A DNA stretch of 64,000 bases from an uncultured Planctomycetota bacterium (GTDB taxonomy: Bacteria; Planctomycetota; Planctomycetia; Isosphaerales; Isosphaeraceae). Both the position numbers and the translations under genes were made by a program. The stretch spans positions 64,001 to 128,000 of the forward strand of contig CAWJTV010000006.1 of assembly GCA_963845755.1 (NCBI GenBank). The letters run 5' to 3'. Below are positions 52,641 to 64,000 of the stretch, piece by piece (the first letter of the stretch is position 1; every line of letters starts with the position of its first letter). The notes below the pieces were generated by a model that was given only the letters and a program-made list of their open reading frames with translations, searched no databases and was not told the origin of the DNA.

Positions 52641-53962
52641 GGAACCGCGAAAAAATAAGTTGAGCAATTTCGGGTTGCGGAATTATGCGGCTTCGACGAT
52701 CCTTGCCGCATGCAAGACACAACCACCATTGAGTGTATCCGGCAGAAGTACCTGGCGCTGTCTCCTGTGATGGACGAGCAGATACGCAGACTGTGGGTAG
52801 CTACTGAGGCTTCCGCCTTGGGTTGGGGCGGCGTCACGGCCGTCTCCCTGGCTACGGGTGTGGCTCGTAATACGATCGCGGCGGGGCTTCGTGAACTGGA
52901 AGATCGTCGTGCTCATCCGGAGCCGAGCCGCGCGTTGCGGATTCGTCGCCCTGGTGCCGGTCGCAAGCTCCTGACCGAGACCGACCCGGGATTGCAACAA
53001 GCTTTGGAGGTCTTGGTCGATCCGGCGACCCGAGGGCATCCGGAGTCGCCGCTGCGCTGGACCTGTAAGAGCACCAGTAAGTTGGCCGAGGAACTTCGGA
53101 ATCAGGGGCACGCCGTGTCGGACCGCGCGGTCGCTCACCTCCTGAAGAAGGCCGGCTATAGCCTGCAAGCCAATCGCAAGACGAGAGAAGGCTCCTCGCA
53201 GCCGGACCGCAACGCCCAGTTCGAGTACATCAACCGACAAGTGATCGCATACCAGAGGCGCAGTCAACCGGTCGTGTCCGTCAACACCAAGAAGAAGGAA
53301 TTGGTCGGCGAATTCAAGAACCCGGGTGAGGAATGGCAACCCAAAGGCGAGCCGGAGGAGGTCAAAGTCCATGACTTCCCGGACAAGAAGTTGGGTAAGG
53401 CGATCCCTTATGGGGTATACGACCTCGCTCATAACGAAGGCTGGGTCAGCGTGGGGATCGATCACGATACGGCGCGGTTCGCGGTGGCCAGCATCGGGCG
53501 CTGGTGGCGGGAGATGGGTTGCCGGCGCGTATCCGCGAGCTACGCAATTGATGATCACCGCGGACGGGGGCGGAAGCAATGGCAGCCGCAACCGACTGTG
53601 GAAGCTGGCATTGCAAGACCTGGCCAGTGACTTGGGTATGTCGCTGCGCGTGCTGTCACTTCCCACCGGGGACCAGTAAATGGAACAAAATCGAACATCG
53701 GCTCTTCTGCTTCATTACCAAGAACTGGCGGGGCCGGCCGCTGACGAGCTACCAGGTGATCGTGAACCTCATCGCGAATACGACGACGAAGACGGGCCTG
53801 ACGGTGCGTGCCCTCCTGGATACCGACGTATATGAGACCGGAATCGAGGTCAGTGACGAGCAACTTGCTAGCCTCAAGTTAACGCCGGCCAAGTTTCACG
53901 GAGAGTGGAACTACACAATCCGCCCCCAGAAATAATTGCTCAGGTTATTTTTTCGCTGTTCC
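52641..53962 (+). mobile_element. ISAzo13-family insertion sequence
   Basis: 29-bp TIR (26/29) GGAAC(C/A)GCGAAAAAATAA..TGAGCAATT; TAA duplication at 52638-52640 / 53963-53965. Confidence 0.9.
52710..53935 (+). pseudogene. ISAzo13 (Rhodopirellula-type DDE) transposase, frameshifted near 53520 and 53650
   Basis: TRGHPESPLRWTCKST, YSLQANRKT, KAIPYGVYD, ITADGGGSNG, PPGTSKWNKIEHRLF, FHGEWNYTI. Confidence 0.9.
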
Positions 53963-55346
53963 TAACGGCGGCCAGGAACGATCGTTGTCCAGGCCGCTCG
54001 ACCAGGGACTGCGGGCGTCGATCCCCACGAAGACGCCACCAGATTGAGTCTCCCAACGGAGCGACTCACGCACAACGCGGTGGCCACCGTCCGGCAACCC
54101 GGTCGCGCCCACGGATCGCGTCGCCTTCGGCGGCAGCGGTCAGACCGTGGACCCCGATCCGAACCGCCCGGCAGGACGACGAGACAGGTTCGCTTTCGCG
54201 GTGCCGATGTGGTCCCTCGTCGTGGACCGATACGAGCGGTGCCGCCGCCCTGGAGTCCTTCAAGGCCGCCGCCGAGGGGGATCCCCTGGCCGCCAACAGA
54301 CCCGGGGATCTCCGGCCGTCGCGGCAAGGGAGGACTCTGCGCCGGCGGCCCATCGGCGGGCTCGATCGAGATCCTGGACCTGATCGTCCGCGCGTCGCAG
54401 CCGGCCGCCGAAGGCCTGTGTTGAGGCTCGACGTTGACCGGGCGCCGGGATGTCTGCGGGCAAGGTTGCCGAGCCTGCCCGTCAGAACGCAATGGTCCGC
54501 GCTCGGCGAGTCCTGGGACCGCCACGAGCCGTGAAGCCGTAGGTCAGGATCTTCACGCGCTGGTTCGCCGGCGCCGTGAACTAGGCAACGGTCTTGGTCA
54601 CGCCGGCCGCCAGCGCCAGCGACGCGGCGGAGGCGAAGTCGATCTTCCCGAGCGATGCGGACATGAGCTCCCTGCTCCTCGGTACCGAGCGGAATTGCGG
54701 AGGCCGTCGCGGGCCCGTCCGTGGGTCGCGAGTCGCACGTAAGGCCCATCGTCACGGACAGCCACCACGGAGACGAAATCGACCGGGGGGCTAAAAAAGA
54801 GGCCACGACGTCCCGCGCCGCCCCGGAGGACGACGCGAGCCGCATGGCCCATTAGCTCGATTAACGTTAATCTCGCGACCCTACCGCCGCGGGAGCACCT
54901 CGTCGGGTCTCGCGTGTCCGTTGGCCTCGGCCGGCCACCTCGAGCACGCGGACGACGCCCGTCGCCGCCGGCGCGGCTCGCGTTCGTGCGCCGAGCAGTC
55001 GTCCGCCCTGTTCGCCCGCAGTTGCGCCAGCTGTCCGCCGCGAGCAGGGCCAGTCCCAGCTCCCTGAGGATCCGGGTCGAGACGCCGATCCGGGCCTTCC
55101 GGAGCGGCCGGCCGCTCCGCGAGATCGGCATGATCTCGATCTGCGTGCCGCAGTCGTCGAGCACGAAGCCGACGCAAGGTCGGCTGTCGCCATAAGTGCT
55201 CTGACCCTCGAGGACCCGCGTGAGCGTGTTACCCATAGGTGCTCCCTATCGGTGCGGATGGACGCGTCCTTCGCCGCGCCCGGGCGCTACGATAACGGCG
55301 TAATCAAGACGCCGTACACGGATCTATGACGGTTTCGAGTCGGATT

Positions 55347-55703
55347 TCAGCTATTGGCGGTCGAGCTCCGGCTAGCTGGCCCTTCCAGGAGCCGCGGTAG
55401 ATGCTCCAAGACTTCAGCGTCCCGCGTCTTGAAATACTTCTCGGCCCGCTTCTTGTGCCAGTCCTCCTGGAACAGCCCGACGAAGTCCGAGAGGTACTTG
55501 AGCGGATAGAGCCGCGCCTTGACGACCCGGCCGTCCTCGTAGGTGTGGTCATACGTGTCAAAGTCGTTCGGCTCGACCCCCTTCTCCTCGCGAAGCCATC
55601 GGCAGAAGACCTGACCCATCGAGATGTCCGGCACGCACTTCTCTGGAACGACGTAGCCGTTGATCTCCAGCGGCGCGATCAGCCAGCAGTTGATCTCCTG
55701 GAG
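55347..55703 (-). pseudogene. C-terminal half of a BstA-like / KilA-N-associated protein
   Basis: LQEINCWLIAPLE.NGY.VP...VPDISMG..F..WLR...Y.H.YEDGR.V.ARLYP; cut exactly at the RIT end. Confidence 0.7.
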
Positions 55704-55795
55704 CTATGTGGTAAAGATGCTTATGTTGCGCCGGTCCGAGTGACCGCCCGTTCCATCGAACAGGGCATGGATCGAATGCCACAGAAGAGATTTGG

Positions 55796-56242
55796 TCAAA
55801 GCGCCCACGGGACGTTCACCAGTCCCGAGTCCTCCCTCCGTGGCCTCCCGCCGACTTGGCCGTCAACCTCTCGATTGGCCAACGCCTTGGCTTTCATCTT
55901 CAGATCAACCTCCGCATATGCATTCGTCATCGCCGACGACGCCCGGCTGGCGAACCGCAGCCGCGGCAGACGGGTCGGGCGCATCATCGGCGGCCTGGAT
56001 CGCCGGTTGGTCCGGCGATTCGCCTCGGCCTCGATCTCGGCCCTGGTAACGAGTTCGTCGGGCGGGTCGGCTAGGCGGAAGGCTCTGGCGACCACGAGGG
56101 TGTAAATGGCGATGTCCCTCAGCGTCCGGGGCGACACCCGTTGCTCGGCGCAATGAATGAGGTAGCGGAGGCGCTCCTCGGCCAACGGGCCAGGGCGCTG
56201 TCCTGCCAGCGCATCTGGAGACTTGAAGAGTTGCTCGAACAT
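55796..56242 (-). pseudogene. Internally deleted RIT: RitA N-terminus fused to RitC C-terminus
   Basis: MFEQLF..GPLAEERLRYLIHCAEQ (RitA-like) joined to TNAYAEVDLKMKAKALA (RitC-like). Confidence 0.85.
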
Positions 56243-56424
56243 GTCGAAGCTCTTTCGAGAGATGGGACGGGAGGATGGTCCGACTCCAGCTTGGGCTTAC
56301 GTCATCCGTCTATCCCAGTTGAAGGAAATTCGAAGAATCCCGCATGGATTCCGGAAAAGTTCCAAGCGATCGGTCCATGCCTGCACATTACGGGTAGGAC
56401 GTCATCATCGGGAGGCTTGGGCAG

Positions 56425-58039
56425 ATGCCAAGAAGGGTGCACGGTTCGGTCTTGCGGTCGATCCAGACGCTGTTCAGCGTTGGGCCGGTTGGCGGGATGG
56501 TCGATGGCCAGCTCGTGGAGCAGTTCCTCTGCCGGCGGGACGAGGGGGCCGAGGCGGCGTTCACCGCCCTCGTTGGCATCCACGGCCCGATGGTCTGGGA
56601 TGTTTGTTGCGGCATCCTGTCCGACCGCCACGCGGCGGAGGACGCGTTTCAGGCCACCTTCCTAGTCCTGGCACGCCGGGCCGGTTCGATTCGTCGTCGC
56701 GACGCCGTCGGCCCGTGGCTACACGGGGTGGCTCGGCGGATCGCGATACGGGCCAGGTCCGCCGCGGGCCGTCGTCAGCCTCGCGAAGGGAAGGCTGTGG
56801 AGATGATGGCGACACCAAACCCGGACCCGATCCGTCGAGAGCAGGTCGAGGCGCTCCACGAGGAGGTCGATCGCCTGGCGGAGAAATACCGCGCGCCCCT
56901 CTTGCTCTGCTACTTCGAGGGCCGGACACACGTCGAAGCAGCTCGGCTGCTGAAATGCCCGGTCGGTACGGTCAGCTACCGCCTGTCCCGGGCCCGGGAG
57001 CTCTTGCGAGCTCGCCTGACCCGCCGGGGATTGGCCCTGCCCGCTGTCGGGGCGGGCGCGATGCTCCGACCGGAGACCGCGTCGGCAGCCATGCCCATCG
57101 GGCTGGCCGAGGCCACGATCAAGGCCGCGATGAATCTCGCAGCCAGCAAGGCGATGACGGCTGGGATGGTCCCGGCCTCGATAACCCAACTCGTCCAAGG
57201 AGAGATCCTTACCATGACCTTCACCAAGCTAGCGACGGTAGCAGCGGGCCTGGTGGCCACCGGGCTCGTCGCGACGGCCATCGGAGTGTTCGTGGTCGAC
57301 GGGCGGCGCTGCCCCGCTCGTGCAGGGGGCAGCCGCACCGGCGCCATCGGGGGGCGGACAGACGGCCCCGTCCAAGCCCGTGCAGACGACGACTGCGCCG
57401 GCGCGGTCCGATGGCAATGAGAAGGAGGCCCGGGGCAAGAGTAGCCGGAATCTCCTGAGCTTGGGTCTCCCCCTATCCAACTTCGCCCACGACCGGAACC
57501 GGTTCCCTGCTGCAGCGATCCGCGAGGACGGCAAGCCGCTGTTGAGCTGGCGGGTCGCCCTCCTGCCTTACCTGGACGAGCAGGCCCTCTACAAGAAGTT
57601 CCACCTCGACGAGCCCTGGGACAGCCCGCACAACAGGGCGTTGCTCGACCAGATGCCCGCCATCTACACCCCGGTCGCGGGCAAGGAGAAGGGGTCCAAG
57701 CGGTTGACTTACTATCAAGTGTTGGTCGGCCCCGGGGCACTGTTCGCTGGGGGCGATGGGCCGCGGCGCGAAGACATCAAGGATGGGGCGGACCTCACGA
57801 TCATGGTCGTCGAGGGGGCCAAGCCGGTCCCCTGGACCAAGCCCCAAGACATACCCTTCGACAAGGAAAAGCCGTTGCCGGATCTCGGTGGGCTGTTCGA
57901 GGACGGATTCCACGCCCTCATGGCCAGTGGCCGCGTCGTCTTCCTCGCCAAGAACAACAGGCCCGAAGACCTGCGTGCAATCATCACGCCCGATGGCGGC
58001 GAAGCCGTCAATTTGGAGCATCTAGAGTTGCAACCTTGA
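56425..58039 (+). CDS. ECF sigma factor with C-terminal extension/TM, probably fused to a DUF1559-like domain (frameshift near 57310)
   Basis: AEDAFQATFLVL, WLHGVARR, RAPLLLCYFEG, GTV..RLSRARELLR; then LLSWRVALLPYL...FHLDEPWDSPHN, VPWTKP.D. Confidence 0.8.
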
Positions 58040-58168
58040 GCGGCCGGTCCGGCCGGTGATGGTGCGCCGTGGGCTCCTCGGCACACCCCTCCGACACAGG
58101 CCACCCCGGCCTGCCGAGTCTGTCATCCCTGCCGTTCGCCGTCGATGACCCCGATTGGGAGGCTCCCG

Positions 58169-59167
58169 ATGCAAGATTTCCATTCGCCCCGGCACCACCG
58201 GGCCTTCACGCTGATCGAATTGCTCGTCGTTATCCTGATCATCGGCCTGATCACGGCGCTGCTCCTGCCCGCCGTTCAATCGGCCCGGGAAGCGGCGCGC
58301 CGGACCCAGTGCGCCAACAACCTCCGGCAGATCGGCATCGCGCTCCAGAACTACACCTCAGCCTTCAGCGTGTTTCCCCCGGGGTGGGACGCGGCCATCC
58401 CCGCTGGCGCCGAGGACGGCGACAATTTCTATGTCCCGCCGATTTCCTGGGGCTGGGGAGCCCGGCTGCTCGGGTTCCTTGAGCAGAACCCGCTCGCCGA
58501 GGACGTCCGCCGCCTCGGCGACTACTTCGTCTCGGCGTCGTCGTCGACGGTCGCGTCGACCAGGCTGGCGGTCTTCCTCTGCCCCAGCTCCCCGCGGGGC
58601 ACGCCCATCTCTTTTACGATCGAGGATCCGAGCGAGGAGGATGAGCCGTTCCACTTCGTCGTCGCGCCGAGCAATTTCGTCGGCTCCGCCGGCACCAAGG
58701 ACCCCAACTACTTCCCTCGGTCGTGCGGCGGAATCTTCTTCCGCAACAGTAACGTCGCGGAGGCCGGCATCAGCGACGGGATGTCCTCGACGATGATGGT
58801 CGGCGAACGATCGCGCGACCTCTCGGACGCGACCTGGCCCGGCGGGTATTTCGGGAGCAACAACTGCACCGGGCCCTCGTGGCCGGTGCAGTTGTGCGAT
58901 CCCGCCGGAACCTCGTGGATCGTCTCCCACACCGGCCCTGAGCCGGCCACCCCCTACTTGCCGGGTGTCCCGCCCGACCCACGAATCCAGGTCCCCAATG
59001 ATCGCCAGCCGGGCCCGAGCGGCTACCGAAGCCTACACCACGGCGGGTGCAACTTCCTCTTCTGCGACGGATCGGTCCGCTTCGTGAAAGAGACCGTCAG
59101 CCCCCCAACCTTCGCCGCCCTGGCAACCCGGGCCGGGGGCGAGGTGATCGGGGCCGACCAGTACTGA
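58169..59167 (+). CDS. DUF1559 prepilin-type N-methylation / H-X9-DG protein
   Basis: AFTLIELLVV, LLPAVQSAREAARR.QC.NNL.QIG.AL, H.GGCNFLFCDGSVRF. Confidence 0.95.
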   Translation: MQDFHSPRHHRAFTLIELLVVILIIGLITALLLPAVQSAREAARRTQCANNLRQIGIALQNYTSAFSVFPPGWDAAIPAGAEDGDNFYVPPISWGWGARLLGFLEQNPLAEDVRRLGDYFVSASSSTVASTRLAVFLCPSSPRGTPISFTIEDPSEEDEPFHFVVAPSNFVGSAGTKDPNYFPRSCGGIFFRNSNVAEAGISDGMSSTMMVGERSRDLSDATWPGGYFGSNNCTGPSWPVQLCDPAGTSWIVSHTGPEPATPYLPGVPPDPRIQVPNDRQPGPSGYRSLHHGGCNFLFCDGSVRFVKETVSPPTFAALATRAGGEVIGADQY

Positions 59168-59352
59168 CGAGGCTCGCGGGGACACGACGTGGTGGCCCGG
59201 CCGTGACACAGGCGCGCGGGGAGACGACCTGTGTCATCATCCGCCGGGCTGCTCGCCGGCCCTCGTGGCTCGATGGTTATCTGGCCCAACTCCGCCAAGG
59301 CCGGGCGTCATCAATGCGGCCCGTCAAGGGACTGGCGACTGGAGATCCGATC

Positions 59353-59712
59353 ATGGCTGGATCGCTCCCACGATGGGCGTCTATAATCCTCGCCGCCGCC
59401 GCCGTGCTCGTCGGGGTGACCTTCGGGCTCCTGGAGTGGTGGAAATCCCAGCGGCTGGCCGAGGACCACGCCTCTCGTGCCCAGAAGGCGTTGAATGAGA
59501 TGGGCAAGCATTACGCGACTATTCGTTTATGTAAAGAGCAGCTCAAGACGGCGAGGCTCCCCACCGAGAAGGCCCGCTATGAGTCGCTGATCAGGTCTTC
59601 CCGCAGCAGGCTGGTCAAGCTCGAAGAAGCGACCGTTCGCCATGAGCGGCTGGCGCGCTCCTACGGATATAAGGCGCCCTTCAAGCGTCCGGAGTCGGAC
59701 TCCAACCCGTGA
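59353..59712 (+). CDS. Hypothetical membrane-anchored helical protein
   Basis: GGAG RBS; N-terminal TM segment followed by a coiled region. Confidence 0.6.
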   Translation: MAGSLPRWASIILAAAAVLVGVTFGLLEWWKSQRLAEDHASRAQKALNEMGKHYATIRLCKEQLKTARLPTEKARYESLIRSSRSRLVKLEEATVRHERLARSYGYKAPFKRPESDSNP

Positions 59713-59932
59713 CCGAGCGCCGTCTCAAACCACCGGATCCCGCTGATGGGCTGCCTGGCAGCGAGCCTGTGGCGGTGGACGACGGCCCGCACGAGGAAGA
59801 TGGAGCCTGACCGGGCATCGCAGGAGACTTCGACTCGCTCGGCCCATGCCGCCAGATACGATGTGGCCTCCAGAATGGGACGGCGGCCACGATGAAGGAA
59901 GTAGCTGGTCCTATGCTACATAATCGGATGGC

Positions 59933-60944
59933 CTACAATGCCCGCAGGAACTCCATCAAGCCTTTGTCTTCTCGCCAGGGCTTCTGCGGTATTCCTTCTC
60001 CCTGCACCTCGCAACTGGCCAACGCCTTGGCCTTCATCTCCAGATCCACATCCGCGTAGACGTTCGTCGTCGCCAGTGACACGTGCCCCAGCCAGGCGCG
60101 GATGGTATTGATATCCACCCCCGCTCGCAGCAGGTGCGTCGCCGTCGTATAGCGTAGAGTGTGCGGGCTCACCCTCTTTGTGGTCATCGAAGGGACCTTC
60201 TCCGCCGCCCGGGCTGCGTACCGCTCGACCATCGCATGGACGCCGAATCGCGTCAGCGGCTCGCCACGGCGGTTCAGAAAGACGTGCTCCTTCTCGGCGC
60301 TCCCCTGCACCAGCGCCGTCAACTCGCTCACCGTTCGCGCCCACAGCGGGCAGCGCCTGAGCTTGCTCCCCTTACCGCGGATCAGCACCGCCGACGCGTC
60401 CCGCTCCGGCTTCAGCCCCAGTTGCAGGTCACCGATCAACACGTGGGCCGTTTCATCGGCTCGGACACCGCTGTTGTAGAGGAACAGCAGCAGGGCGTGA
60501 TCGCGACGGCCCTGAGCGGTCGTCAGGTCCGGCGCCGCCAGCAGGGCATCCATCTCCGCCTTCCAGGTAGGTGACCAGCGCCTTCGGGGCCTTCTTGAAC
60601 GGCACCGCTCGCACTTGCCCGCACCACTCGACCAGCTCTGGTGCGCGCAGGCCAATGAAGCCGGCCAGGGCGTGGATCGCGGCTAGCCGCTGGTTCCGCG
60701 TGGCGATCGCGCATCCTCGCTGCTCCTCCAGTTCCCCCAGGAACTGACGCACGCGTTCGGCCGACAGGTCGGTCACGGCCAAGCGATCTATCGGTTTGCC
60801 GGTCCGTTGGGCGACGTCCGGGAGCAACAGCCGCAATGCGTCGCGGTAACTCTGCTGGGTATTCCGGGCGAGGTTCCGCTCGCCGACCAGGTGCTCCATC
60901 AGGAACCGGCGAACCCACGGGCTGAGCAAAGGAGCGTCAGGCAT
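59933..60944 (-). CDS. RIT tyrosine recombinase C (frameshift near 60565)
   Basis: NTQQSYRD, TRNQRLAAIH, RDHALLLFLYNSG.R, SPHTLR, WLGH...TTNVY. Confidence 0.9.
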
Positions 60945-61884
60945 GGTCGTCCTCCACGCCGGCGTACCGCTTGAACCGCATCCCGGCTTGCTGCAGCAGG
61001 TCCGGCGTCATGGTGAGGTAGAGCTGTGTAAATCTGATGTGGGCGTGCCCCAAGTAGACCGAGAGGTGATGAAGGAGGCGTTGCACGTCCGCCCCTTGCT
61101 GATACCACCGGATCAGGCGATGAACGGCGAAGCTATGCCGCATGTCGTGCAGTCTTGGCTGGTAGCGGGCGCCATCAGACCGCCGTATCCCCGCAAGGTC
61201 CCTGAGCCGCTCGAACGTCCCGTCCATCGTCTGCACCTGAATCGCGGCCCCACGTTTGCCGAGGAAGAATCGACTCTCCGGGCCAATCCCGGGGTGAGAT
61301 GCCGCTCGCCGCCGAGCATATTCGGTCAGCACGCCAGCCAGTTCGGGCCCGATCGGGACCAGGCGGGACTTGAAGAACTTGATATCCCGGACGGTGACCA
61401 GGGCGTTCGGCAGGTCAACATCCGCTGCGGACAGAGCCAGCGCCTCACCGACGCGCAGGCCTGCCCCGTAGAGCAACAGCAGGATCGCCCGAAGGGTGTC
61501 CGGCTCAATCAGAGTGCGGTAGTCCTGCGATGACCGGATCGCATCCAGCAACCGCCGGATCTCGCCTCGGGTGTAGATATACGGCACGAATGGCAGCGGG
61601 GGCTTCGGGAGGATCTTAGGCATCGGGGCCTCAGTGAGATGCCCGCGGCTGACAGCGAAGCGGAAGAACCCATTGAGCGCTCGGTACTTGGGGAACCACC
61701 CGCTCGTGACTGGACTGCCGCTATCCAGGAATGCAGACACAAACTCGGCACCGATGTGGGCGGCGGGTGTCTGTGGCCCGACCGCCCGGCAGAACGAGCG
61801 GAGGATGCTCTCGTTTGTCTTGAACTTCTCACCGAGTGTCCGGCGGAAGGCGACGTAGTGGGTGACCAGTTCATCGACGTTCAA
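60937..61884 (-). CDS. RIT tyrosine recombinase B
   Basis: PYIYT, LLYGAGLRVGEAL, KFFKSRLVP, PRLHDMRHSFAV, LSVYLGH...Y. Confidence 0.92.
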   Translation of the reverse strand: MNVDELVTHYVAFRRTLGEKFKTNESILRSFCRAVGPQTPAAHIGAEFVSAFLDSGSPVTSGWFPKYRALNGFFRFAVSRGHLTEAPMPKILPKPPLPFVPYIYTRGEIRRLLDAIRSSQDYRTLIEPDTLRAILLLLYGAGLRVGEALALSAADVDLPNALVTVRDIKFFKSRLVPIGPELAGVLTEYARRRAASHPGIGPESRFFLGKRGAAIQVQTMDGTFERLRDLAGIRRSDGARYQPRLHDMRHSFAVHRLIRWYQQGADVQRLLHHLSVYLGHAHIRFTQLYLTMTPDLLQQAGMRFKRYAGVEDDHA

Positions 61885-63134
61885 AGCAAGCCCTCCAGAT
61901 AGAAATCCCCGACGGCTCGCAGTGCGGCCAGATCGACCTTGGCGTAGAGGCGGGTCGTTTCGGGGTCCATAGGCCCGAGATGATCGCCGATCTCCTTCAC
62001 GGACAGCCCCTGCTCCAGCAAATGGGTGGCGCAGGAGTGGCGAAGAGCATGCGGGCCATAGTGCGGCAACGTCACGCCCAAGGCGCGTAACCGCTGCCTG
62101 ACCACGTGGCCCAGGAGGCAGCAGCTCAAAGGCCCGAACGGCGCTCGCAGGTTGAGAAACACCTCCCGACGGGCTGACATGGGCGCACCTCCCGCAGGTA
62201 GCGCAGGACGGCGTCGCCGACCGCTCGGCACAAGGGGAAACTCTGCGGCCGTTGTCGTTTGCCGTGCGCGACGGTGAGCTCCTCTCGCTCCCAGTCGAAG
62301 TCCTCCAGACGCAGTTCGACGACCTCCCCGGCGCGGAGGCCGTAGACGGCCAGCAGCATCAGCACAGCGTGGGCGCGGATATCGGCGGGCCGGTCCCCTC
62401 GCGCTGCCACGAGCAGCCTCTTTACGGCCTCCCAGGAGGGGCCGACCGCGATCGACTCATGGCGGAATACCCGCGGAGCCACGAGGGCCGCCGCCAGCCC
62501 CGGGCGGCACCACGCACACGCTTCCGCGTACCGGAAGAAAGCGCGGAGCCGAGCGACATGGCCCCGGACAGTAATGCGCACGTAGCCTCTCTCGCGGATC
62601 TGCCGAGACAGGATGTCGTCAACCTGGGCGATCGTCAGCGTATCGAGGCGCCGACCGGACTCATCGACCCGAGCCAAGAACTCACAGACCGTACGGCAAC
62701 GGATCTCGATGGTCCGAGGTGATAAACCGCGTTCCTGACGCATGTAGTTGGCGAATCGCGTGATCTGCTCGGCGTATGGCTGAGGGGCTGTGATCATTGG
62801 CCGAAGCCGGCCGAGGAAGGAGAGCCATCGCGTGGCGTAACGGGTGAATCGGCGCCACGCGGAACTCACGGTCGTCAACGCGCGTTGAGGAGAACGGCGG
62901 CTCGCCCAGCGATCTGCTGCGGCCTTGATCTCTTCGCGTGTGATAAGTTCACCAGACCGCTCGGCCAGGCGCAGGGCGTTGGCGGCGGCAAGGGTGCAGT
63001 GGGCAATCTCCAGCAACGTCTTGTGTGCCATTCGCTGTTCGGCACAGTGAACGAGGTAGCACCGACGTTCCTCAGCCAGCGGGCCGTCCCGCTGTCGAGA
63101 AAGGGCGCGCGTCCGGGAACAATTGATCGAACAC
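61881..63134 (-). CDS. RIT tyrosine recombinase A (frameshifts near 63100 and 62175)
   Basis: GTG start MFDQLF; LLAVYGLRAGEV, GPHALRHSCATHLL, IGDHLG...YAKVDL. Confidence 0.88.
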
Positions 63135-63734
63135 AGTTGAACCTCCGGGCAAGTGGATTAGGCGCCCTGTTCAACTCTAGCCTGGATTCCCATGGAGGCA
63201 GATTGGGCTAACATTTGTTGCCGCATGATTGGAAAAAAGCCCGCGATACTCAGCTTTTCGCCTCGGAACTGGTTATGCTCCTCCAAGAGTTAAAGGTGGG
63301 TCTCCCACTAAGTTAACTTGATCACCATGGATGATATGTTCGTCGATCGAATCTCACTTCCTCCTGGAAAACAAGGGGTTCTTGCGACAAATCTATCGAA
63401 TTCACCACAGTGGATGCATTGAGATGACACCGTGGATGCTCTTTTTTCAGTTTACGGATCACCTAACATCGAGAGAGGCGTTTCGATGAGCCGTTTCAAG
63501 CCAGAACCACTTGAAATCCAGGGGAAAACCCACTTCGACGAATTTTGCTTCGTTTATGGATTGCGTCGTAGCCTACCCCGTTTTTGCCTCCATGGGAATC
63601 CAGGCTAGGTCGGAAATGATTATGGGGCGTTCATCTTGCCAACCGTGCGTGAATCCCAGTCAACCAACACTTCACGGCCGCATAACCGACTACGCCACAT
63701 AACACCCGTAATGTGGTAGACCACATTAAGGATG

Positions 63735-64000
63735 GATCGAGAAGTACCCCAACGGAACCTGGTCGAAATTCGCCAGATGCCGTCGCATGTGATACGGCAG
63801 CGCCGCCTGTCTCGCCGCGGCCGCGGCGCAGGATCCTGGCCGCCGCCGTCATCGCGAGACGGCACTGGCGGTAGATCTCGAAGATAGGGCGAAGCTTCCG
63901 GGCGGCGAAGAATTCGAAACACCGGATCGAGAGGTGGATCTCGTCCTTCGGCCGGCCGACCTGGGACCGCCTGGAGTTTTCCACATTCCTGTTGAAAATG
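63735..64000 (-). pseudogene. N-terminal part of the BstA-like gene (antirepressor-like segment; continues beyond window)
   Basis: ..GRPKDEIHLSIRCFEFFAARKLRPIFEIYRQ.. then, after a frameshift, AALPYHMRRHLANFDQVPLGYFSI, which continues as LQEI at 55703. Confidence 0.7.

Follow-up and report, generated by a model that had tools for sequence, protein, structure and literature searches.

An 8-kb block bounded by the ends of two RIT elements inside a split BstA-like gene of an uncultured planctomycete

Layout of the Locus

The window considered here is a stretch of 64,000 nt from an uncultured planctomycete of the family Isosphaeraceae (assembly GCA_963845755.1, contig CAWJTV010000006.1, positions 64,001 to 128,000 of the forward strand). 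It contains an inserted block of 8031 bp (55704–63734) that lies exactly within a gene for a BstA-like protein and consists of three parts: a RIT element (RIT-1) with the recombinase genes ritA-ritB-ritC on the minus strand, about 3.4 kb of cargo, and a 0.64-kb remnant of another RIT (RIT-2). In passages of the paper by Van Houdt et al. (2012, PMC3414803), a RIT is described as a ritA-ritB-ritC trio carried on one strand with short overlaps and delimited by terminal inverted repeats.

Read along the minus strand, from right to left, the locus begins with the N-terminal half of the host gene, followed by AGGATG, a palindrome, CACCCG, the ritA-side end of RIT-1, a miniature inverted-repeat transposable element (MITE), and ritA-ritB-ritC. 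Then come the degenerate ritC-side end of RIT-1, four cargo open reading frames (ORFs) on the opposite strand, the RIT-2 remnant, the ritC-side end of the latter, and the C-terminal half of the host gene. An earlier note made from the sequence of this DNA had described the split gene, the box-type ends and the cargo as a composite RIT transposon; the palindrome with its spacers, the MITE, the deletion state of RIT-2, the apparent frameshifts, and the loss of the ritA-side end of RIT-2 are additional to it.

The following designations are used below. G000 is the 14.27-Mb genome that holds the window, with C6 as the window's contig, while G008, G009, and G012 are genomes of relatives. L012 is the G008:C4 locus, L003 is G012:C59, and L029 is the locus G000:C13:255000-268000. 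L016 and L017 are two loci of one named metagenome-assembled genome, and L031 is an uninterrupted paralogue of the gene in which their RITs reside.

The Interrupted Host Gene

The C-terminal half of the host gene occupies 55347–55703 on the minus strand, and the N-terminal half occupies 63735–64000 on the same strand and runs about 254 nt past the window (to C6:128254). The C-terminal domain has a match in PHROG 6287 (phrog_6287, E 1.2e-23), a family that bears the name BstA abortive infection system. For the left half alone (118 aa), 286 homologues were found, of which the full-length ones measure about 250–280 aa and are matched from about residue 150 onward. The gene is present in a single copy in G000 and was found in 2 of the 121 genomes of the family, the second genome having a fragment only.

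It had been claimed in the earlier note that deleting 55704–63734 rejoins the gene in frame, and the comparison with intact homologues bears this out. When the rejoined DNA lacking the block was searched by tblastn with four homologues, each gave one high-scoring segment pair (HSP), and all four HSPs extend across the join, so the two halves belong to one protein. The HSPs begin 22 codons ahead of the join; three of the four are ungapped, and P0004, which is the best of the full-length homologues, has 68% identity along 128 aa. At the corresponding place P0004 reads ...VPFGYFSILQEITTKLIAPLE..., and homologues read ...FSILQEI..., with no residue missing. The boundary of the block is ambiguous by 1 nt since a G occupies 55703 as well as 63734. 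A target duplication of 4 nt (TGGA) was also considered and would give an in-frame join too, but it would lose a Leu residue kept by all homologues and was therefore rejected. An apparent frameshift in the host gene near 63830 is absent from an otherwise identical short-read contig, which differs there by 1 nt.

RIT-1 and Its Recombinase Genes

The three recombinase genes of RIT-1 are adjacent and follow one another on the minus strand in the order ritA (61881–63136), ritB (60937–61884), and ritC (59933–60944), with an overlap of 4 bp between ritA and ritB (61881/61884) and of 8 bp between ritB and ritC (60937/60944). The trio shows 83% nucleotide identity to that of L016 over 3208 bp, which confirms the gene order. 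The Pfam domain Phage_integrase is found in RitA (in both pieces of its translation), RitB, and RitC, the latter also having SAM-like domains, and the XerC/D-like matches in NCBIfam lie below the equivalog cut-offs. RitA bears an N-terminal extension ahead of its SAM-like domain; for comparison, passages of PMC8138268 attribute two core-binding domains to RitA and an additional C-terminal helix to RitC. By its gene order, overlaps, domains, and ends, the block is a RIT.

Only ritB is intact (315 aa; its product is 83% identical to that of L016/L017). Apparent frameshifts are located in ritA near 62180 and 63104, and an apparent 2-nt frameshift near 60561 divides ritC into two ORF pieces, so that RIT-1 as assembled does not have the intact reading frames of a functional element. 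At the frameshift places in ritA, one related contig carries an additional G and an additional GC, and an additional TC is found in a related contig at 60561. Some or all of the frameshifts in ritA and ritC may be assembly errors, as the one in the host gene at 63830 seems to be.

The 432-bp MITE (63177–63608) lies between ritA and the ritA-side end and has perfect inverted ends of 24 nt. It has 19 further copies in the genome at 93–99.8% identity and must therefore have been active recently; a related contig without it joins 63176 to 63605, with four shared nucleotides, which points to a CTAG duplication at the MITE. Both RIT-1 and RIT-2 are single-copy in the genome. Other RIT sequences of G000 include a further, distant trio just before the window (G000:C6:52750-55589), with a protein identity of 33–37%, and solo ritC fragments 69–77% identical to RitC of RIT-1 at G000:C40:71077-72060 and G000:C12:159759-160382.

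The Outer and Inner Ends

The block terminates in two mirror-image ends of 83 nt, made up of six 9-bp boxes, all of which are located where the earlier note had placed them. In the left outer end (55704–55786), which is the ritC-side end of RIT-2, the boxes are CTATGTGGT at 55704, TTATGTTGC at 55721, and GCCACAGAA ending at 55786, i.e., a box, 8 nt, a second box, 48 nt, and an opposed box. In the right outer end (63620–63702), the ritA-side end of RIT-1, they are TTATGGGGC at 63620, GCCGCATAA ending at 63685, and GCCACATAA ending at 63702. The number of boxes is by itself not significant: TTATGTGGC within one mismatch has 9 matches in 64 kb versus 4.94 +/- 2.24 expected, and 8 of 100 shuffles reach 9. 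Their arrangement and its conservation are not due to chance. The layout of box, 8 nt, box, 46–57 nt, and opposed box is found at 10 ends of five related elements, where these 83-nt structures represent the terminal inverted repeats typical of RITs, and even a loose box-8 nt-box pattern has just six matches across the 14.27-Mb genome, three of which are the RIT ends considered here. The outer junctions are typical of the family. Of the 83 nt of the left outer end, 61 are the same as in the ritC-side end of the G008 RIT (z score 17.8); for the right outer end, the agreement is with the ritA-side end of the RIT in G012:C18, at 58 nt (z 11.9).

The inner ends are in a different state. The ritC-side end of RIT-1 (59841–59923) retains the inner box GCTACATAA in the alignment, while its outer boxes have decayed, and it scores z <= 2.9 against the ends of relatives; the internal end beside ritC had already been called degenerate in the earlier note, and rightly so. 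The ritA-side end of RIT-2 is undetectable, with z about 0 against the RIT ends of relatives. Since one inner end is degenerate and the other is gone, the outer pair is the only good pair of ends in the block. The segment 56330–56408, which resembles the right end, was tried as a candidate for the missing end of RIT-2 and rejected: it scores z about 0 against real ends, and from 56346 onward it is homologous to the region upstream of the sigma factor gene in G012:C39, a locus without a RIT.

Box-like arrangements were also observed elsewhere. The contig L003 starts (positions 1-30) with ...CATAA-CGGTCC-TTATGTGGC, which resembles a ritA-side box directly followed by a 6-nt spacer and a ritC-side box; such a sequence might come from a tandem or circle junction, but a break of the assembly at a repeat would be another explanation. 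Two identical sites, G000:C19:6000 and G000:C40:78022, each have another pair of directly repeated 9-bp boxes (GCAACATAA...ACAACATAA) at a distance of 17 nt, with an inverted box-like motif behind them, and may be the ends of a different recombinase element.

The RIT-2 Remnant

RIT-2 corresponds to the RIT of G008 with 2.77 kb deleted and is 75–77% identical to it over 597 nt: positions 55721–55940 of the window match L012 3851–4070, and positions 55946–56318 match L012 6837–7212. As seen by tblastn, the deletion has produced an ORF of 148 aa on the minus strand (55796–56242) that fuses the N-terminus of RitA' to the C-terminus of RitC', as the G008 RIT would read without L012 4070–6837. The DNA upstream of ritA' (56243–56345) remains homologous to the G008 RIT up to 56318, and no ritA-side end is recognisable in it. 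In the G008 RIT itself, about 650 bp of extra DNA (L012 7212–7860) lie between the start of ritA and the ritA-side end, which is the same place as that of the MITE in RIT-1 and of the break of homology in RIT-2.

RIT-2 matches RIT-1 over 274 nt only, at 68–83%. Since RIT-2 is nearer to the G008 RIT, while RIT-1 is 83% identical to the L016 RIT, the two belong to different lineages. The left outer end is contiguous with the ritA'::ritC' remnant and flush with the C-terminal half of the host gene. The right outer end becomes contiguous with RIT-1 when the MITE is removed, and the 8-nt spacer between its boxes is of the L016 type. A nested model, in which both outer ends would belong to RIT-2, with RIT-1 and the cargo inside, is not favoured because of this contiguity of the right end with RIT-1 and the type of its spacer.

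The End Palindrome and the Two-Copy Relative

The last 32 nt of the block (63703–63734) are inserted DNA and read CACCCG, TAATGTGGT-AG-ACCACATTA, AGGATG, that is, a 20-nt palindrome with box-like arms (TAATGTGGTAGACCACATTA, 63709–63728) between two 6-nt spacers. The same spacer-palindrome-spacer arrangement stands beside the ritA-side ends of the G008 RIT, the G000:C13 RIT, and the RIT in L017, and beside the ritC-side end of that in L016; a strict pattern for the palindrome finds only two places in the genome. At the other extreme of the block, the host 6-mer CTGGAG (55698–55703), a probable exchange spacer, adjoins the left outer box, and 6-mers adjoin the ends in L016, L017, and G008 at the same position. 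The 6-mers on the two sides are equal in G008 and L016 and unequal in L017, in G000:C13, and in the window. In the window, the host retains CTGGAG, which encodes the Leu-Gln kept by homologues, and AGGATG is foreign, which is consistent with an exchange inside a 6-bp spacer that duplicates no target sequence.

The most informative relatives are the inserts in L016 (4599–8884) and L017 (4575–8858), which share 4260 bp at 99.93% identity, including a DUF72 gene between ritC and the ritC-side end. Their near-identity, with the DUF72 gene included, shows that a RIT of the RIT-1 clade carries a passenger and has recently multiplied. The two inserts reside at the same point of two large paralogous genes in opposite orientation. 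The intact paralogue L031 (about 1480–1510) reads ...NRYFLNHPEMV... at this point, with one CATCCC and no palindrome, and serves as the empty site; because the palindrome is lacking there, it must arrive with the element. The idea that the palindrome is part of the target was rejected for the same reason, and also because the 32 nt of the window would break the frame of the host gene. The inserts in L016 and L017 are circular permutations of GGGATG-RIT-CACCCG-palindrome, and a circle integrating via either of the 6-nt spacers beside the palindrome would give exactly such an outcome.

The target sites in the two unrelated host genes are similar around the 6-mer (TACTTC-TCGATC-CTCCAG-GAGAT in the window, TACTTT-CTCAAC-CATCCC-GAAAT in L016/L017/L031), a likeness between two independent sites only, which hints at a target preference. 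A second RIT of G000, in L029 (3099–10230), spans 7.1 kb between three-box ends and has the palindrome, and its trio looks frameshifted. The extra 3.7 kb between its ritC and the end contain IS66-like and RNase H-like transposase ORFs. It was considered as a second composite and rejected since, with these ORFs and no clear internal end, the extra DNA is probably a nested insertion sequence (IS) and not cargo.

The Cargo Genes and the Neighbourhood

The cargo between RIT-1 and RIT-2 comprises four ordinary planctomycete genes on the plus strand: one for an extracytoplasmic function (ECF) sigma factor, two of the DUF1559 family, and one for a small membrane protein. The first part (56346–57420) includes a conserved upstream region (56346–56424) and the sigma factor gene, whose product matches Pfam Sigma70_r2/r4_2 and NCBIfam sigma70-ECF and ends in a membrane-spanning tail. 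It overlaps the next, DUF1559-like ORF (57320–58039, Pfam PF07596) by 101 nt in a different frame. In a related metagenome contig, one nucleotide is missing at 57305, so that the sigma factor, the membrane-spanning segment, and the DUF1559 part would form a single protein of about 540 aa; the two ORFs are thus probably one reading frame, with an apparent frameshift in the sigma factor gene. The second DUF1559 gene (58145–59167; Pfam and NCBIfam) encodes a protein with a prepilin-type N-terminal methylation motif and HX9DG and is 73% identical to its homologue in G009:C21. The small predicted membrane protein (59047–59712) is an ORF call with an uncertain start codon, and searches of Pfam and NCBIfam assigned it to no family.

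The sigma factor is 71% identical to that of G012:C39, the sigma/DUF1559 pair as a whole is 71–75% identical, and the homology begins at 56346; no RIT gene is present in the 12-kb G012:C39 locus. Judged by these sequence comparisons, the cargo is ordinary chromosomal DNA with homologues in non-RIT or non-mobile contexts. The earlier note had proposed looking for the same cargo at other loci, but there is no close copy elsewhere in G000, and the homologue in the other genome stands in a non-RIT context.

The GC content of the block is not distinct from that of its flanks. The neighbourhood is rich in transposase genes, with an ISAzo13-type gene at 52710–53630 and IS4-like and ISL3-like genes to the right of the block.

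A Probable Composite Element and Its Possible Movement

With element-derived ends at both extremes, unrelated genes between them, and an exact split of the host gene that embraces the whole block without target duplication, the 8031-bp block is, in our opinion, quite probably a composite mobile element inserted as one piece by RIT tyrosine recombinases. This reading starts from the exactness of the host split, the identities of the parts, the family-typical outer junctions, and the arrival of the palindrome with the element in the relative. The likely mechanism is derived from the two-copy relative L016/L017, and the movement in one step, the circle, and the position of exchange are inferred. 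The working ends would be a mismatched pair, namely, the ritA-side end of RIT-1 with its palindrome and the ritC-side end of RIT-2, and the decayed end of RIT-1, the four cargo genes, and the ritA'::ritC' stump of RIT-2 would travel along. Recombinases bound to the 9-bp boxes would join the two ends into a circle, the junction of which would read box, 6 nt, palindrome, 6 nt, box. Integration of the circle would then follow from an exchange of strands within one or the other 6-nt spacer, leaving the host CTGGAG on the left and the AGGATG of the element on the right, with no target duplication.

Two elements of the earlier note should be qualified in this connection. It had proposed that the outer ends of two RITs moved the cargo as a unit; the two lineages and the split gene support this, and the single-step move is probable. 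It had also called the block a composite, which is correct in that the ends bracket the cargo, but the block is not flanked by two complete elements: one partner, RIT-2, is an end-bearing remnant of 0.64 kb without a ritA-side end.

Several points weigh against movement as one piece. The empty allele was not found among the 121 family genomes, a circle junction was not found either, and no second insertion site of the block turned up in G000 or 41 relatives. A search of metagenome contigs with the remnant protein gave 26 loci, all of them distant ordinary RITs with 34–64% identity on partial matches. The public runs yielded short, low-depth contigs containing at most 0.19 of the words, which cover neither 55301–55601 nor the two outer junctions, and the excision joint was not seen in them, a result that is uninformative either way at this low coverage. 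RIT-1 may be dead now, with its three apparent frameshifts and the MITE between ritA and the end, provided that the frameshifts do not stem from the assembly. The RIT recombinases would also have to accept ends from two lineages. Nor does the mismatch of the ends prove their different origin: over their terminal 26 nt, the two outer ends have 17 positions in common, and the two ends of the G000:C13 element itself share only 16 of 26. The real evidence for two origins is the contiguity of the ends with two different gene remnants.

Finally, a similar picture would result from stepwise accretion. RIT-2 would have entered the gene first, and a circle of RIT-1 plus cargo, excised elsewhere via a distant or pseudo end, would have docked later at the ritA-side end of RIT-2 or at its palindrome, after which deletions would have taken the interior of RIT-2, the outer ritA-side box, and the second palindrome. 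The cargo would still have been moved by RIT recombination, but the present block would never have travelled as one piece. The palindrome with its two spacers represents a ready docking site beside a resident RIT, and the ritA side of RIT-2 stops about where the outer boxes should start, with cargo homology from 56346. Passages of the published literature report RITs in complex combinations, in which genes are missing or truncated, on some plasmids, and the relative in L016/L017 carries its passenger gene inside a single RIT. However, accretion requires no fewer than two additional deletions. It also leads one to expect another palindrome between RIT-2 and the cargo, but there is none (the strict palindrome pattern has only two matches in the genome), and the segment 56346–56424 is homologous to the upstream region of a non-RIT sigma factor gene. 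Moreover, a working ritC-side end beyond the cargo would still be needed, which is the composite idea again. On balance, accretion in steps seems possible but unlikely.

Considerably less probable is that RIT recombination did not move the cargo at all. In that case, the gene would have held two tandem RITs, and homologous recombination, gene conversion, or another mobile element would have put the sigma/DUF1559 segment between the two. Transposase genes are indeed numerous nearby, and a MITE has already entered RIT-1. The earlier note had recognised that independent boundaries of the cargo would speak against its joint movement with the RITs; no repeats, duplications, or transposase genes bound the cargo, neither the cargo nor either RIT has another copy in the genome that could serve as a source of homology, and the cargo consists of ordinary family genes with homologues in non-mobile contexts. 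As for the possibility that reads of different loci or strains were joined into a chimera, the assembly does contain indel errors (1 nt at 63830 and several apparent frameshifts) and a multi-copy MITE lies inside the block, but an artefact is very improbable because a misjoin would not put complementary gene halves exactly and in frame at both sides, both RITs are single-copy and offer no repeat to misjoin at, and the RIT-2 deletion joint and the joint of RIT-2 with the cargo are spanned by short-read contigs from two studies (an identical contig spans 56236–56523, and contigs of about 96% identity span 55806–56107 and 56106–56399).

Comparison with Known Systems

In the composite transposons formed by IS elements, such as Tn10 and Tn5, two element copies bracket unrelated genes, the outer ends cooperate, and the inner ends are dispensable and may decay. 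The block resembles them in having two elements around unrelated genes, outer ends that would work together, and decayed inner ends. In contrast to Tn10 and Tn5, it uses tyrosine recombinases and not DDE transposases and has produced no target duplication, and its partners are in direct orientation, belong to different lineages, and include one that is only an end-bearing stump. If the block moved as one unit, which we regard as the probable course of events, it operates on the principle of an IS composite transposon, with tyrosine recombinases as the enzymes, mismatched ends, and no target duplication.

Arrays of integrative and conjugative, integrative and mobilizable, and cis-mobilizable elements (ICE/IME/CIME) develop when integrative elements accumulate in tandem at an attachment site that they share; internal sites may be lost, and the array then acts as a unit. 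The block likewise has two site-specific elements in direct order within one target, but it differs in having 3.4 kb of ordinary genes between them and no internal palindrome or attachment site left.

In Tn554-related elements, strand-biased circularizing elements (SEs), and GInts, a 6-bp junction sequence is carried or left and not duplicated, according to passages of PMC10214605. As described there, these elements combine several tyrosine recombinases and have a circular form, which would also apply to the block. In contrast to them, the block has no counterpart of TnpC, Srap, or GinD, and the passages of PMC10214605 do not describe three-box ends or an end palindrome for these groups.

The closest affinity is to the RITs themselves, a widespread but little-understood group of elements, with which the block shares three adjacent genes for XerC/D-like tyrosine recombinases, overlaps of 4 bp and 8 bp, inverted ends, and relatives with identical copies within a genome. 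In published passages, RITs are about 3.5 kb long and contain only three genes and short inverted repeats; the block, on the contrary, is 8 kb long, has the ends of two RIT lineages and four non-recombinase genes, and its ends are 83-nt three-box structures with the spacer-palindrome-spacer. The passages of PMC3414803, PMC10214605, PMC5737581, and PMC8138268, supplements aside, make no mention of passenger genes or two-RIT composites. According to passages of PMC5737581, ritABC regions had raised coverage in a mobilome fraction, though a circle was not determinable, and a passage of a 2023 paper states that RIT transposition has never been reproduced in the laboratory.

Significance

The locus and its two-copy relative define RIT ends precisely, as three 9-bp boxes together with the spacer-palindrome-spacer, and provide evidence for two further points: the palindrome moves together with the element, and the 6-nt spacers act in the manner of exchange sequences. 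The locus also supplies a case in which regulatory and envelope genes lie between the ends of two RITs inside an exactly split gene, which suggests that RIT elements can carry host genes as paired insertion sequences do. The movement of RITs and their capture of cargo thereby become directly testable. By inactivating a BstA-like abortive infection gene, the insertion is, in addition, a small example of mobile DNA disabling a defence gene.

A broader proposition, which we hold to be evenly balanced, is that RIT recombinases can pair the ends of two lineages, so that any chromosomal DNA between two RIT insertions could become a mobile unit travelling as a circle with two exchange sites. If this is true, the two exchange sites account for the presence of the palindrome at either end and for insertion in either orientation at the same target, and the family would gain both the first concrete, testable model of RIT transposition and a route for the spreading of ordinary genes.

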